64,000 nt of DNA from a virus. The position numbers and the translations under genes were made by a program. Numbering within the stretch: position 1 is the stretch's first letter; every line of letters begins with the position of its first letter. The notes beneath the pieces are model-generated. The model was not told the origin of the DNA. It did not search any database and was given only the letters and a program-made list of their open reading frames with translations. The stretch is taken from positions 5,771-69,770 of IMG/VR virus record IMGVR_UViG_3300042879_004726. One strand, given 5' to 3'. This document shows, piece after piece, positions 3,634 through 30,238 of the stretch.

Positions 3634-6225
3634 TTACACTGAAAGGGAAGATAAATTAACTCCCTTTTGAATTGCTGCTTTTTGTGCGCGTGAAAGATTC
3701 TGATGAGCAAAATCTGCTTTTTGCTTTGCCTGCAAAACTTGATTGATTGCTGATGTATTCTGTTGATTTTGTGTTGTAGATTGTTGTGTTTGTTCAACTG
3801 CTTCACCCATACCTCTCTTTGCTTTCCTTGCTCTTCTTTGAACTTCTTTTGTAGATACTGGTTCAGTTACAGAACCTGGATTTCTAACGCCACTGTACCT
3901 TCTCACTCTACCATGTTCTCTTGATGTTTCTCTACTTTCCCCTCTTTTACTAAAAGAGCCAACAAGTTGAGTCTGAATTTTTGGATCAGTTCCTCTAGTT
4001 TGTCCCCTTTCACCTTGAGTAACTTGTCTATGTTTTTCTAATGGCTCTAAGTTTTTTGGATCATCATCAATATGAGAAACTTTTTGTGGTTGATATTTTT
4101 TGATATCTTTCTTAGTTGCAATAAGTTTTTTTCGAGGAGAACCAGTTCCCGGAATATCTCCAGTAAAATGACCTGGTTTTATGGTCATTCCACGTTTACG
4201 ATTATATCCAATGTTTTTCAAATGTTGAATTATACTTTTATTATCAACTTTCCCTTTATCTTCAACTAAAGAAACTTCCTCTCCTACTGATTTCCTAAAT
4301 GCACCTCTCGCGGTATTTGGTTCTATTACTGCACCTCTAGATTTATTAATTACATACTTATTTGCTTTTGTGGTTTGTTTGAATTTTGATGGGTCTCTCA
4401 ACGGAGAAAAATCCATAGTTTCTCCTTTTCCTAATTTTTCTTTATGAAAATCTCCAGTAGATACTGTTCTTACAACATTACCTTCAGGTCCTTTAACATT
4501 AATCTTTGCTGGTTCAACTTTAGTTGTTTTCCTTCCTCCAGTTTCAGGGTTTCTTATTTTTTTACTTCCTACTTCTTTTAATGCAGCTTGATCTAAATCA
4601 AGCTGTACTAAATGCTTTGGTCTTGTTGGGCCAGAAAGCTTTTCTATTTTTTTTGATTTTTTTTCAGATCTTGGAAGTTTTGCTTCATCAATATATTGCT
4701 CTGCCATCTTTTTAGCCATCTTAGTGGCAGTAGCATACATTACCTCTTCACCACGCCCAGGATACCTTTTTTCAAAGTCGGAAAGTTGATTTTTCATACT
4801 TTTTACGATTCTTTCCTTTTCACGAGACTCCTTTGAAGATAAAGTTCTTTCTTCAATATATTCCTCTGTTACCTTTTTCTTTTTATTTTTCTTTTTTGGT
4901 TTTTTAGTACCTTCAGGATTCAACATTCTCATTAATTCACCAGGAGACTTGCGGGAACGTGTTTTTCCTGTCTCTACAGATGATAATGGATTAGTTACAG
5001 TTCTAGAACGCAATTCTGGTGTATTATCATCATTATTTTCATTTATTCCAAGTTTATTAGCTGCGGCAGCCATTCTTTGTCTTAATTCTGCCGCCTTATC
5101 CTCCGTACTCTTAACTGAAGAAACAATTCTTTGTGCATCTTCTGGAGATAATTTACCACCCTTTCTACGCTCAGCTCTAACTAATGCTTTCCTTTGATTA
5201 TCATTTAATGGTTTTACGGGAGTTGTGACCGTTTTTGCTGTTGGTTTAAATTGTTTTTTTGGTGGTGATGTTGGTTCACCCCAAGGATCTTCAATTGATT
5301 TTGTTTTTACTTTTGGTCTAGATTCTTGTTTTGTTGGATTTGTTTGTTTAGTAGGTGGTGTATAGGAACCACTACTTACCTTTTCCTTTGTCCCAACTCC
5401 AGTACCACGATATGTTGATGCACTTCTTGTTTTTGTGTGTGCTTGACTTGGTTTTTTATTACCTTCCATTTTGCGAGCAACACCTAATGCTCCTTTAGCA
5501 ACACTTCTTGCTCCAGATGCAACTGCACCTGAAACCATTTTCTTAGCACCACGAACTTTACTGGAAAGTTTTTGTCTTGCAAGTCTTCCAACTGAACTCA
5601 AAATATTTCTACTTCCCTTTTCTTTACTAGAAGTATCGTGACCATAAGTAACTTTTGCTTCAGTCAGGGCATATTCAAGTGCTTCCTCAATATCATCTTC
5701 TTCATATCCTTCACCAAGAAGTTCTATATAAACACTCTCTACAATATAATCAACCTCATCAATTTCAATCATTTCAAGAAGAGTTCCGCCAAGAATTTCT
5801 ACAGATTCTCTTACACCATCACCCATATCAATTGTTGGGTTAATAATAATTTTATTATTTACTGACTTTTCTTTTATTTTATTGTCATTTTTATCTTTAT
5901 TAAGTACTTCGACAATTTCAGAGAGGTCTTCTCTCCAGTTTGAATATCCTTCCTTTACACTTCTTTTTTTTGCCTTTTTTTTGCGAAGTTCTTTAAAATC
6001 AGATGAAGTTAATTTTCCATAGGGAGCTGCTACATCAATTTTAGTCTGATCTCCAACCAACTCTTCTTTAATTTTCTTTTTTCTATCTTTTAATGCCTTT
6101 TTCATAGATTCAATTTCATCACCATCATTATCAAAATCAAGATAATCTGGTTTTGATTTTTTACCTTCAGTTAAACAATCATTATATTCTAATTCATTTA
6201 TTAAAGATCTTTTAGAAATAGACAT
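3634..6225 (-). CDS. Large Lys/Glu-rich modular protein with embedded HAD-like domain; possible head-internal polyprotein
   Basis: 863-aa ORF with late promoter upstream, many hydrophobic-x-E motifs, and HAD-like motifs DLDQ / TARG / HIDDDPKNL. Confidence 0.8.
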   Translation of the reverse strand: MSISKRSLINELEYNDCLTEGKKSKPDYLDFDNDGDEIESMKKALKDRKKKIKEELVGDQTKIDVAAPYGKLTSSDFKELRKKKAKKRSVKEGYSNWREDLSEIVEVLNKDKNDNKIKEKSVNNKIIINPTIDMGDGVRESVEILGGTLLEMIEIDEVDYIVESVYIELLGEGYEEDDIEEALEYALTEAKVTYGHDTSSKEKGSRNILSSVGRLARQKLSSKVRGAKKMVSGAVASGARSVAKGALGVARKMEGNKKPSQAHTKTRSASTYRGTGVGTKEKVSSGSYTPPTKQTNPTKQESRPKVKTKSIEDPWGEPTSPPKKQFKPTAKTVTTPVKPLNDNQRKALVRAERRKGGKLSPEDAQRIVSSVKSTEDKAAELRQRMAAAANKLGINENNDDNTPELRSRTVTNPLSSVETGKTRSRKSPGELMRMLNPEGTKKPKKKNKKKKVTEEYIEERTLSSKESREKERIVKSMKNQLSDFEKRYPGRGEEVMYATATKMAKKMAEQYIDEAKLPRSEKKSKKIEKLSGPTRPKHLVQLDLDQAALKEVGSKKIRNPETGGRKTTKVEPAKINVKGPEGNVVRTVSTGDFHKEKLGKGETMDFSPLRDPSKFKQTTKANKYVINKSRGAVIEPNTARGAFRKSVGEEVSLVEDKGKVDNKSIIQHLKNIGYNRKRGMTIKPGHFTGDIPGTGSPRKKLIATKKDIKKYQPQKVSHIDDDPKNLEPLEKHRQVTQGERGQTRGTDPKIQTQLVGSFSKRGESRETSREHGRVRRYSGVRNPGSVTEPVSTKEVQRRARKAKRGMGEAVEQTQQSTTQNQQNTSAINQVLQAKQKADFAHQNLSRAQKAAIQKGVNLSSLSV

Positions 6226-26971: not shown

Positions 26972-27202
26972 TTACCAGTCTGGATATTGCCAATTTACAT
27001 TTAAATAAGTTAATCGTTTATTATTAATAACTCGTTTTACGGTACATTCTTTACATTCATATGAGTATGATGATGCAACAGGCCCTCTATCCTTGCGAGT
27101 TCTATAAAATTCACCTACCAAATTTTTATTTAACCCACAAGATCTACATTTTCTGTCTGTAAATAATAAGTGACCCAAATTCAGTTGCTTATCAATTTCC
27201 AT
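26972..27202 (-). CDS. Small zinc-finger hypothetical protein
   Basis: CRSC...YSYECKEC; ends YPDW. Confidence 0.75.
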   Translation of the reverse strand: MEIDKQLNLGHLLFTDRKCRSCGLNKNLVGEFYRTRKDRGPVASSYSYECKECTVKRVINNKRLTYLNVNWQYPDW

Positions 27203-27208
27203 ATTTTG

Positions 27209-28423
27209 TTAGTATTTCCACATATAATCCCATTCAGTTGATCTATCTCCATATTCATCTAAAAACCATCTATCTCCATCTTCATCAACAAAGGTCTTTT
27301 CTTCATTTAATCCATCAGATATAAATCCAAATGGTGACATATCTTGCTCTATTTGATTCTTTTGTTCTTCATATAGTCTTTTTCTTACGTCTTGATCAGT
27401 AAGTTCTTTGAAATAATCTTGAGCAACTAACCAAGCATAAATGACCAAGCACATTGCTAGGTCATCATTGCAACCTTCCTCAGCCTCAAAAGAATTGTGT
27501 TTTTGTATAAAAGTTGTTAATTCTGAAATTATTTCATAATCGTTTAATATCAATTTACTTTCTTCAATCATAGTCTTGAGATTAAGACATCCAACTTTTT
27601 TAACAGTTTTTGACATCTTAACTCCTAATTGAGTCTTTTTACCCGAAAATCCTTGCCCAACAATTTGACCCGCCCTTCCTCTCATTGAACACATAAGAAG
27701 ATTATTATATTCTAAATCATATTGAAGAATACTTGCTACTTGATCTCCAACATCGTTTACTTCACATAGAATATAAGAGTTATTATACGCAACTGCTGCT
27801 TCGTGTATTACACTTGGGAACAACATTGGTTTTATTTCGTTATGCCTATATTTCGCAACAACTTTATGAGGAAACTGAGTGATATCTATTATAGTAAATG
27901 CTGAATAATCATTTCCTACGCCTCTAGCAACGTCTACAGTAATCAAATAGTCGTGTTCTTCTATAGGGTCCTCATAGACATCTAAACCAGCACTACGGGC
28001 CTTTGGGTGGTCATATACGAGCGTTCTGAGTTTACTTGGTGCAATAAGAGTATCAACAGAACCTAAAAATTCACAATTATGTGATACTATATTATTTGAA
28101 TAATATAAATGATCAGTACCAGAATTTACAATATCATATAATTCTATTGGTTCATTAATGACTTTTGATCTTTTTAAAAAGCAACCACCATTTTTTGTGT
28201 AAATTTCTGTAAATTTATCTAAATCTTTTGCTTTAATTATTCCTTCAATTGTAGATAATGGATGGTCTAAAGAACATTTTAATTCATTTCCATCTGTAAA
28301 TGTTAAATGTATGTACTTATTCTTTGTTATTTTATTAATACCAAAAAAGGATACTAAACCTTCTGGTGAAAGTATTTTGTGTCCTTTTTTGTTTAATACT
28401 ACGCTTTCAGGAATTGTATGCAC
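27209..28423 (-). CDS. gp17: Terminase large subunit C-terminal fragment preceded by split-intein C-part
   Basis: GTG start; 116-aa IntC ending VSHN, then CEFLGSVDTLI, DVARGVGNDYSAF, GCNDDLAM nuclease motifs. Confidence 0.93.
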   Translation of the reverse strand: MHTIPESVVLNKKGHKILSPEGLVSFFGINKITKNKYIHLTFTDGNELKCSLDHPLSTIEGIIKAKDLDKFTEIYTKNGGCFLKRSKVINEPIELYDIVNSGTDHLYYSNNIVSHNCEFLGSVDTLIAPSKLRTLVYDHPKARSAGLDVYEDPIEEHDYLITVDVARGVGNDYSAFTIIDITQFPHKVVAKYRHNEIKPMLFPSVIHEAAVAYNNSYILCEVNDVGDQVASILQYDLEYNNLLMCSMRGRAGQIVGQGFSGKKTQLGVKMSKTVKKVGCLNLKTMIEESKLILNDYEIISELTTFIQKHNSFEAEEGCNDDLAMCLVIYAWLVAQDYFKELTDQDVRKRLYEEQKNQIEQDMSPFGFISDGLNEEKTFVDEDGDRWFLDEYGDRSTEWDYMWKY

Positions 28424-28567
28424 TTGTTTAAAATTTTTTCAGGATAATTTTTATATTCCAATTGTTCTTTTGTGATATTTTTACTGTTCGTTTTTGAGTT
28501 GCTCATATAAGTCACCTATACATACATCTATTATACCATTATTTATTGTAGTCTCAAAGGATAACGA
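28076..28567 (-). mobile_element. Atypically split intein in gp17 (IntN 28567-28484, IntC 28423-28076)
   Basis: EFE|SLSFETTINNGIIDVCIGDLYEQLKNEQ* and MHTIP...KILSPEG...CSLDHP...LYDIVN...VSHN|CEF. Confidence 0.9.
28399..28506 (-). pseudogene. 35-codon remnant of an intervening endonuclease gene
   Basis: Third-frame ORF MSNSKTNSKNITKEQLEYKNYPEKILNKCIQFLKA* overlapping the IntN end and the IntC start. Confidence 0.55.
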
Positions 28568-30238
28568 TTCAAACTCAACCTTAAATTGTTGTTCGCTGGT
28601 GTTAGCAATTGTCTGTTTTTTCCATTCTTCATCTCTACCAGGAACCTCACTCCAATGAACATCGGTAAAAATATATTCATTTTTACCTTTTTCAGCATCG
28701 TGCCACATTCGGTAGAAATGATTCATACCGTGTGGAGTTGATACAATAATTACTTTTGTCTGTTTACCTGAAGTAATTGTAGGATATACTGATGCGAAGA
28801 AAGAATCTGCGATATGATTTGGTACGAACGCAAATTCATCCAAAAATAAAATATTGAATGACATACCACGAACCGCAGAAGCAGAAGTAGAAGCAGCCAA
28901 GATTTTACTTCCATTTTCCAATTCCAATGAACCTTTATTCCAAGAAATAATTCCTTGCTGCATCCATTTTGGTAGATTTTCATATGCTGTTTGCAATCTA
29001 TCTAAAAGTTCTCTTGCAGTTGCTGCCTTGTTTGCAAGAATACCAATATTTACATTATCATTAAATACTGCATAATGTAAAAGGAATGCAACTACTGTTG
29101 TTGAATTGTGTGTAGGTATAAAAGTTTTTCCACATAAAAATAAATGATCTTGATTATCAACTGAAATGCATTGCATAGGTTCAGTTTCAATTTTACGAAT
29201 ATCTTTAATATAAAGTCTTTTATTTTTTGGATGGTCTAAACTATTTTTTTGTCTTTCTAATTTTCTTGGTAACGTAAAAACTTCATATTTATTTGTACAA
29301 AAACTTATGGTTCCATATAATCCAGAATAACCGGATATTTTTTTGTACCTTAGTCTACTTTTAATACCCAATGAAGATAATAACTCTCTGACTTGATGTA
29401 ACAATTTTCCATCTTTTTGATAAAATTCACAAGCACCATTTGGAGATACTGAACCATCAGTATCCATCAATCCCTTTAAAAGTTCTAATCTTTGTGAAGT
29501 TGAAGATCTTAAATATTCTTCTGGAATGATTTTTTCAGATATTTTGTTTATATCTTCATATAAACCAGTAATTGCACCATTTGATTTTGAACCATCTCCT
29601 AACCAAACGCCAAGAGTATAGGGGTCTATTGGAAGCTTAATTTCTGGTAAATCAATTGATTCATTTATTTGGATATAAATTGATGACGATTTAAATACTT
29701 TTTTAAGACAATTAAATTTTTCTATAATTTGATTTGTAGTCAGTATTTTTTCTTTATGATACCAATCACTATGAGAAACTTTCCATAAATGTTCACCACA
29801 TGCTTTTATAATTTCTCCATTATCAAATTCAATCTCATAAGTATCTATTTGTTGTATAGGAGATTTTCCAATTACTTTTGTAGTTTTCCCATCTCTTGCA
29901 AAAATAAGATCACCCACATTCAAATCTCCCATATTAGTCCATCCAGTTGGTGTTGGGATGGGTGTATCAAGGGACAACATTTTTCCAGTCTGACGAGGCA
30001 TCTTACAGATATTAAATCTGTGTTTATGGAAATTATTAATTAACTTTTCTTGAAAATGATATGGTTTAAATGATTGTAGTCCATGATCAAGAGTAACAAT
30101 TTTTACATAATTATTTGCAAAATAAACAGGATCATTCATACACTTCACAATCTCAAAAACCTGCTCTTCTGTAAACTCGTGAGTGGTATTTGCTTTTTTA
30201 AGTAAAGGATTGCCAAGATATACATCATTATTTGACAT
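28481..30238 (-). CDS. gp17: Terminase large subunit N-terminal (ATPase) fragment with internal intein and split-intein N-part
   Basis: YLGNPLLK, MPRQTGK|...|STT Walker A, LFLDEFAF Walker B, IVSTPHG, WSEVPGRD. Confidence 0.95.
   Translation of the reverse strand: MSNNDVYLGNPLLKKANTTHEFTEEQVFEIVKCMNDPVYFANNYVKIVTLDHGLQSFKPYHFQEKLINNFHKHRFNICKMPRQTGKMLSLDTPIPTPTGWTNMGDLNVGDLIFARDGKTTKVIGKSPIQQIDTYEIEFDNGEIIKACGEHLWKVSHSDWYHKEKILTTNQIIEKFNCLKKVFKSSSIYIQINESIDLPEIKLPIDPYTLGVWLGDGSKSNGAITGLYEDINKISEKIIPEEYLRSSTSQRLELLKGLMDTDGSVSPNGACEFYQKDGKLLHQVRELLSSLGIKSRLRYKKISGYSGLYGTISFCTNKYEVFTLPRKLERQKNSLDHPKNKRLYIKDIRKIETEPMQCISVDNQDHLFLCGKTFIPTHNSTTVVAFLLHYAVFNDNVNIGILANKAATARELLDRLQTAYENLPKWMQQGIISWNKGSLELENGSKILAASTSASAVRGMSFNILFLDEFAFVPNHIADSFFASVYPTITSGKQTKVIIVSTPHGMNHFYRMWHDAEKGKNEYIFTDVHWSEVPGRDEEWKKQTIANTSEQQFKVEFESLSFETTINNGIIDVCIGDLYEQLKNEQ
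29105..29980 (-). mobile_element. Class-3-type intein (Met1) with LAGLIDADG domain in the gp17 P-loop
   Basis: GK|MLSLDTPIPTPTGW...ACGEHLW...LGVWLGDG...LKGLMDTDG...MQCISVD...IPTHN|STT; 292 aa. Confidence 0.92.

Follow-up and report, generated by a model that had tools for sequence, protein, structure and literature searches.

The question raised by this locus is how a phage obtains a complete large terminase when the gene for it is broken into two open reading frames (ORFs). The DNA analysed is a stretch of 64,000 nucleotides (nt), hereafter the window, which covers positions 5,771 to 69,770 of the IMG/VR virus record IMGVR_UViG_3300042879_004726. The gene is gp17, encoding the large terminase (TerL), and at the break its two ORFs carry the N-terminal fragment (IntN) and the C-terminal fragment (IntC) of an intein. 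Judging from the gene itself and from its relatives, it is very likely that these fragments are a functional trans-splicing split intein of the GOS-TerL type, which would join the ATPase half and the nuclease half of the enzyme into one chain.

The split terminase gene and its accuracy

An earlier note on this DNA had described gp17 as two ORFs, the first ending in an IntN of 28 amino acids (aa) and the second beginning with a 116-aa IntC that ends in VSHN directly before CEFLG, and this is indeed what the sequence reads. The same note had placed the two ORFs in different frames, which is wrong, as both lie in one frame, with three in-frame stops (TAA, TAA and TGA) within 60 nt between them. 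The limits that it gave for the element, 28076-28567, are the exact borders in the alignment with gp17 of the Synechococcus phage S-SM2, which has no intein at this place: cutting out 28567..28076 restores KVEFE-CEFLGSVDTLIAPSKLRTL exactly, that is to say, the proposed EFE-CEFLGS is the true extein junction. According to this alignment and to the domain positions, the intein is inserted between EFE and CEFLGS of a T4-type large terminase, between the ATPase and the nuclease domains. In the domain search, Terminase_6N occupies residues 379-556 of ORF1, so that its end falls on ORF1 residue 556, and Terminase_6C occupies residues 161-323 of ORF2, while residues 113-400 of ORF2 are 80.6% identical to TerL of the Synechococcus phages S-SM2 and SynMITS9220M01.

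Residue 1 of the intein is Ser, as had been claimed (TCG at 28567-28565), and it is paired with Cys+1, whose codon lies at 28075-28073. IntC contains CSLDH in block B (S51, H54), IELYDI in block F (D97) and SHN at its end (H115, N116). The class 1 motifs are complete, namely Ser1, (T/S)xxH in block B, Asp in block F, the terminal His-Asn and Cys+1, and these residues align with those of CatC. Compared with solved structures, IntC matches CatC (6DSL_B) over IntC residues 9-115 with an E-value (E) of 2.8e-17, and gp41-1 inteins with 1.7e-5 and 2.9e-4. A short IntN (28 aa) and a long IntC (116 aa) on separate ORFs lie within the sizes of natural atypically split inteins (IntN 15-37 aa, IntC >100 aa), the former range being given in PMC13014065. 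The features of the locus are collected in Table 1.

Table 1. Features of the terminase locus and its immediate surroundings, numbered from the first letter of the window
Feature	Position	Strand	Remark
ORF1, 585 aa	30238..28481	-	TerL N-half and IntN
ORF2, 404 aa	28423..27209	-	IntC and TerL C-half
TerL N-extein, first piece, aa 1-86	29981..30238	-	Ends ...CKMPRQTGK in the Walker A loop; aligns with S-SM2 gp17 residues 1-85
TerL N-extein, second piece, remaining ATPase domain	28568..29104	-	Ends ...QQFKVEFE; Terminase_6N; S-SM2 alignment
IntN, 28 aa, SLSFETTINNGIIDVCIGDLYEQLKNEQ	28484..28567	-	Ser1 = TCG 28567-28565; followed by stop TAA 28483-28481
Spacer, 57 nt, ORF1 stop to IntC start	28424..28480	-	Two further stops in the TerL frame, TAA and TGA
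IntC, 116 aa, GTG start	28076..28423	-	Begins MHTIPESVV..., ends ...NNIVSHN; CatC match E 2.8e-17
TerL C-extein, nuclease domain, from Cys+1 (CEFLGSVDTL...)	27209..28075	-	Stop codon included; Terminase_6C; S-SM2 alignment
Mini-ORF, 35 codons, MSNSKTNSKNITKEQLEYKNYPEKILNKCIQFLKA*	28399..28506	-	Other frame than TerL; fused first and last codons of the 390-aa gene of the related locus L003
Intein 1, contiguous, 292 aa	29105..29980	-	LAGLIDADG_3 (PF14528, E 2.4e-11); between PRQTGK and STTVV, absent from S-SM2 gp17
Endonuclease VII-type ORF, free-standing, 137 aa	30245..30658	-	PF02945 E 2.4e-15; phrog_2633 E 3.6e-27; immediately upstream of TerL
Small ORF, 76 aa, PHROG labelled endonuclease VII	26972..27202	-	phrog_4723 E 2.9e-34; immediately downstream of TerL

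The source record is 69.8 kb long and is classed as a linear, incomplete virus genome (CheckV completeness 36%). Sequencing runs in which the stretch occurs carry the label lake water or freshwater metagenome; 10 of them contain at least half of the sampled words, and 4 of these are possible sources. The accuracy of the sequence was checked on the contigs of four runs not marked as source (X5, X6, X7 and X9). The run X5 gave an 837-nt contig over 27893-28729 with 0 differences, and X7 and X9, which come from other studies, each gave a contig of 599 nt that spans 27998-28596 and shows 8 substitutions and 0 gaps, five of the six coding differences of this variant being synonymous. The X6 contigs cover both flanks and leave a hole at 28465-28482, which is evidence neither way. 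In the contigs of all four runs no change was seen at the Ser1 codon TCG, the ORF1 stop TAA or the IntC start GTG, and Cys+1 is likewise unvaried. Both TCG at 28567-28565 and TAA at 28483-28481, as read in the earlier note, are thus borne out at contig level in independent runs. An assembly error was considered and rejected, since independent lake contigs bridge the junctions without insertions or deletions.

The same assemblies contain the gene in its uninterrupted form. In X7 and X9, short contigs depart from the window exactly at 28075 and 28567, with the coding strand continuing as ...GAGTTTGAA and TGTGAATTTTTAGGATCT, and the departing sequence is the intein-free EFE-CEFLGS junction. As the contigs leave the window at just these two positions, the assembly graph itself marks the borders of the element, and as they join the exteins directly, intein-less TerL alleles co-occur with the intein-bearing allele (X5, X6, X7 and X9).

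Known terminase inteins, relatives and the gap between the halves

The earlier note had grouped AceL-TerL, GOS-TerL and Cat as inteins that share the insertion site and the short-N split and that start with Cys. The site and the architecture hold for all three and Cys1 holds for AceL-TerL and Cat, but GOS-TerL starts with Ser (PMC11766414). It has been described as an atypically split TerL intein with Ser1/Cys+1 that is compatible with Cys1 (PMC10189870, PMC13014065, PMC11766414), and it is tabulated with an IntN of 37 aa, an IntC of 115 aa, Ser1 and Cys+1; its 37-aa IntN can be reduced to 27 aa (both PMC11766414). It is also stated that the histidine of motif NX is absent from GOS TerL (PMC10189870). 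The premise that Ser1/Cys+1 is a new feature therefore fails, because the pairing was introduced with GOS-TerL in 2015 and is the rule among the relatives described below, and the element of the window is a new example within a described family.

The likeness to GOS-TerL extends to the host protein, a T4-like large terminase from an aquatic metagenome, to the atypical split after the first helix, to Ser1 with Cys+1 and the class 1 motifs, and to the length of IntC (116 aa in the window and 115 aa in GOS-TerL), and the 27-aa truncation of the GOS-TerL IntN is close to the natural 28-aa IntN of the window (PMC11766414). They differ in that the natural IntN has 37 aa in GOS-TerL and 28 aa in the window, and in that the window has a GTG start of IntC and a remnant of an endonuclease gene between the halves. 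The closeness of the two was judged through a proxy of matching size, the viral locus L012 (IntN 37 aa, IntC 115 aa, Ser1, Cys+1), in place of the published GOS-TerL sequence, and the IntC of this proxy is 77% identical to that of the window. The 37-aa-type IntN of P0134 does not occur in the supplements of PMC11078102, in which AceL-TerL is the only entry. AceL-TerL and Cat (6DSL) have the same insertion site and split architecture as the window, whereas they carry Cys1 and their IntN begins in a CL/CV-SGDT-like manner, compared with SLSFET in the window. In summary, the element appears to be an atypically split class 1 intein of the GOS-TerL type and is probably functional.

Related proteins were sought in a collection of 5.8 billion metagenomic proteins with IntC and the first extein residues as the query (E ≤ 0.001), and 299 protein clusters match. 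Among the best 120 of these 299, 118 are 386-426 aa long, corresponding to IntC fused to the C-terminal half of TerL, one has 350 aa and one (P0088) has 672 aa; the last is a TerL in which the same site is occupied by a contiguous, un-split mini-intein carrying the Ser1/Cys+1 pair, whose identity to the IntC region of the window is 64%. The search with the N-half matches 482 clusters, the best 120 of which comprise 18 with a short Ser1 tail, 63 with a short Cys1 tail and 39 that are uninterrupted (including P0212). The Ser1 tails in these best 120 are 28 aa long in 9 clusters (the window's own protein included), 35 aa in 1 and 37 aa in 8, and Cys1 forms with an IntN of 28-30 aa are common at the same site (the 63 just mentioned). 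More distant relatives of IntC were found by tblastn in 25 records of cultured phages, under terminase annotations and at 28-35.5% identity. These include Aeromonas phage PX29 (genes annotated 17B), Vibrio phage VP-1 and Escherichia phage kaaroe, and in some such records the annotation is divided over two terminase genes or given as hypothetical.

A scan of IMG/VR gave 24 viral loci whose IntC is 66-88% identical to that of the window. Cys+1 is present in all 24, and Ser1 in 16 of the 16 with a readable IntN; the others (L007 and L020-L026) are left out of the Ser1 count because the flank is short or the search pattern may fail. The 28-aa form of IntN occurs in 8 of these related loci, and in all 16 relatives with both halves found, IntN ends at a stop. 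The Ser1 codon is TCG in 7, AGT in 8 and TCA in 1 of these 16 (within L003-L019), and each of two subclades, one with the SLSFET/SLDYTT forms and one with the SFLPETLIN forms, contains both TCG and AGT. Since single-nucleotide steps lead from TCN to AGY codons only by way of Cys, Thr or another residue, this alternation hints at a passage through Cys1 or Thr1 forms, or else at recombination; no Cys1 or Thr1 member was seen inside the Ser1 clade among the best 120 N-half matches.

Between the IntN stop and the IntC start, 10 of the 16 loci have 1071-1101 nt and the other 6 have 4-116 nt, compared with 57 nt in the window; with gaps of 4-1101 nt the halves need not share a frame, and in L009 and L012 their frames differ. 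The long gap of L003 is taken up by a 390-aa ORF, which overlaps IntN as well as IntC. It matches DUF559 (E 1e-6, above the Pfam cut-off), has helix-turn-helix (HTH) motifs below the cut-off and shows weak PHROG matches labelled HNH endonuclease. The gap ORF was examined in L003; for the nine other long-gap loci, where the size of the gap (1071-1101 nt) is what was recorded, a free-standing endonuclease gene is likely. When the window is aligned with L003, it matches positions 313-416 (93 of 104 identical) and 1461-1544 (81 of 84 identical), and the intervening 1044 nt are missing from it, a loss that is in frame for the endonuclease gene. No intact endonuclease ORF was found between IntN and IntC of the window, only the 35-codon remnant, which reaches from the last part of IntN into the first part of IntC (Table 1). 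In L009 the gap is short and of another kind, yet its beginning is still formed by the first codons of the endonuclease, so the gene may have been lost more than once.

This arrangement has a known counterpart. It has been reported that in fractured genes, mainly of phages, split intein halves flank free-standing Vsr-like or GIY-YIG endonuclease genes, and a gp17 terminase locus from a lake is among the fractured genes listed (Dassa et al. 2009, PMC2677866). In L003 the intein halves likewise flank an ORF with a DUF559/Vsr-type domain and HTH motifs, whereas in the window the endonuclease gene has been cut to 35 codons, so that the arrangement in the window is that of a former fractured gene. 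A strong sigma-70-like match lies inside IntN, just upstream of the ATG of the remnant, at 28530-28557 on the minus strand (TTGAGA, 16 nt, TG-TATAAT, 11/12). The count of such sites in the scan (8 against 5.5 +/- 2.5 expected) is not above chance. The T4 late-promoter consensus TATAAATA has no match near the locus; it occurs 7 times in the window, more rarely than in shuffled sequences (mean 14.6).

Proposed trans-splicing and the alternatives to it

Two further lines of evidence bear on function. Measured against 8 relatives, the ratio of nonsynonymous to synonymous substitution rates (dN/dS) lies at 0.11-0.13 for IntC and at 0.06-0.34 for IntN, which points to purifying selection on both fragments. 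A model of the complex was built from ORF1 residues 546-585 (IntN with 12 extein residues) and ORF2 residues 1-122 (IntC with 6 extein residues). Its interface score, the interaction prediction score from aligned errors (ipSAE), is 0.62, compared with 0.00 for the best of 3 controls; 116 of 157 solved complexes reach this mark of 0.62, as against 2 of 215 mismatched pairs, counts that hold roughly, since alignments of our own were used. At least 84% of the contacts agree between the runs, and the predicted local distance difference test (pLDDT) of the partner is at least 64. In the modelled interface, ORF1 residues 556-568 (EFE and Ser1 onward) lie against IntC residues 48-55, 93-98 and 114-117, that is, against blocks B, F and G.

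Several observations weigh against a functional intein. Intein-less TerL alleles are present in the same runs, which means that the phage lineage as such can do without the intein. In the close homologue AceL-TerL the Ser1/Cys+1 combination is inactivating (PMC11766414), and the pairing would therefore need an active site fitted to it. IntC of the window starts with GTG, whereas the homologous codon is ATG in 22 of 23 readable relatives (L025 being scored as GTG further upstream and L026 not being readable), and no Shine-Dalgarno sequence is visible before it, so that expression of the second half could be weaker. Finally, as the Cat complex (6DSL) is already solved, the good score of the model shows likeness and may derive from that known structure.

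The model also leaves room for a quite different view, namely that the two halves of TerL work as a non-covalent two-subunit terminase and that the intein fragments merely hold them together, without splicing. Association is all that the model supports, chemistry lying outside it, and the step from Ser1 to Cys+1 has been described for GOS-TerL as thermodynamically uphill and slow (PMC11766414). We nevertheless hold this view to be improbable, because Ser1, S51/H54, D97, H115, N116 and Cys+1 are all kept in the window and in its relatives, with dN/dS near 0.1, and because trans-splicing is reported for the homologues GOS-TerL and AceL-TerL (PMC13014065, PMC11766414). Somewhat less credible again is the idea that the terminase gene is no longer functional and is decaying, either because the phage is defective or because the variant is a dead end; the loss of the endonuclease and the GTG start would then be signs of erosion. 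The stub of 35 codons, the departure from the ATG of the relatives and the incompleteness of the genome record (36%) would agree with it, but the two long ORFs are undamaged, several lake runs (2017, 2019 and 2024) yielded this sequence or its gap-free variant with 8 substitutions, and both fragments are under purifying selection. Besides, such elements are expected in the course of their life cycle to lose the homing endonuclease gene once they are fixed, and this leaves splicing unaffected.

It might also be supposed that the split itself is an artefact or is bypassed, the stops being erroneous or being passed by readthrough or recoding, to give a contiguous precursor that contains the intein. 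The common frame of ORF1 and ORF2 and the contiguous Ser1/Cys+1 mini-intein at the same site in P0088 speak for this. Yet the stops are three in 60 nt and of two kinds, the X5, X7 and X9 contigs carry them without insertions or deletions, IntN ends at a stop in 16 relatives whose gaps range from 4 to 1101 nt, and the spacer encodes the endonuclease remnant in another frame; the chance of an artefact or bypass is very slight, the smallest among the three alternatives. Readthrough and recoding in particular were rejected, on the stops of two kinds together with the gaps of the relatives.

Trans-splicing by a GOS-TerL-type intein is thus the reading preferred here. It builds on the anatomy, the homology, the conservation in populations, the accuracy at contig level and the model of the complex, and every chemical step, like the activity itself, is inferred by homology to GOS-TerL, AceL-TerL and Cat. 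The gp17 protein would be made as two polypeptides, TerL-N (ATPase) with the 28-aa IntN, and the 116-aa IntC with TerL-C (nuclease). IntN would fold onto IntC and complete the Hedgehog/intein (HINT) domain, after which an N-O acyl shift at Ser1 would give an oxyester. The attack of Cys+1 on this oxyester would lead to a branched thioester intermediate, Asn116 would cyclise, and a final S-N shift would yield full-length TerL with the native EFE-CEFLGS. As for its origin, the element probably descends from a fractured gene with a free-standing Vsr-like homing endonuclease gene between the halves, 1044 nt of which have been lost in the window phage, leaving the remnant of 35 codons.

A second intein, the gene neighbourhood and what the locus means

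The N-half of the same gene contains a further, contiguous insertion, intein 1 (Table 1). Its best matches in the PDB are the DnaB helicase inteins 6RIX, 6RIY and 6BS8 (E 2.7e-22 to 4e-21). It has Met1 (ATG), GEHLW, MQCISV, PTHN and Ser+1, and in the DnaB intein 6RIX the aligned counterparts of GEHLW, MQCISV and PTHN are aHqW, vrCveV and PTHN. Class 3 inteins are defined by a non-nucleophilic residue 1, by Trp (block B:12), Cys (block F:4) and Thr (block G:5) and by Ser or Thr at +1, and they lie mostly in P-loops, phage terminases included (Tori et al. 2010, PMC2807308). Intein 1 shares with the class 3 inteins of P-loop ATPases a non-nucleophilic residue 1 (here Met), the Trp two residues after the His of block B, the Thr before His-Asn, the block F Cys aligned with that of the DnaB intein, the Ser+1 and the position between the Walker A Lys and Ser/Thr, while it differs in its host, a T4-type TerL of an aquatic phage. 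By these signature residues, with block numbers assigned by eye from the 6RIX alignment, it is a predicted class 3 intein. One TerL is then interrupted by two inteins of, as predicted, different mechanistic classes, and the contiguous one in the Walker A loop would also have to splice before the enzyme works.

The window phage is an uncultured T4-like myovirus of lakes. The tail sheath gene gp18 follows, in the order of T4-like phages, and on either side of TerL lies a small ORF of endonuclease VII type (Table 1). In S-SM2 a gene annotated as endonuclease VII directly follows gp17, in the same position as the 76-aa ORF of the window.

A far-reaching idea, which we regard as a long shot, is that the two inteins are more than parasites. 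The packaging motor would form only after cis-splicing of the class 3 intein (with its internal Cys, in the Walker A loop) and trans-splicing of the class 1 intein (with its uphill step from the Ser1 oxyester to the Cys+1 thioester), and these slow, thiol-dependent steps would act as a redox- or temperature-sensitive timer for the onset of DNA packaging. The switching between TCG and AGT would then be a record of Cys1 or Thr1 forms that tuned the rate.

For protein semisynthesis and labelling, atypically split inteins whose N-fragment is short make useful tools, and the Ser1/Cys+1 pairing is mechanistically unusual. What the window adds to the known family is a natural 28-aa IntN, near the 27-aa truncation reported to work for GOS-TerL (PMC11766414), together with the endonuclease remnant, the switching of the Ser1 codon and the contiguous relative P0088; it does not add a new category. 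Among the relatives, three stages in the life cycle of intein and endonuclease can be seen, namely the intact endonuclease gene, the deleted remnant and, in the same samples, intein-free alleles. Ser1/Cys+1 is the rule in a sizeable and diverse clade of lake and marine phage terminases, and these relatives form a natural panel of variants that can serve engineering as well as the question of how Ser1 is able to work with Cys+1.

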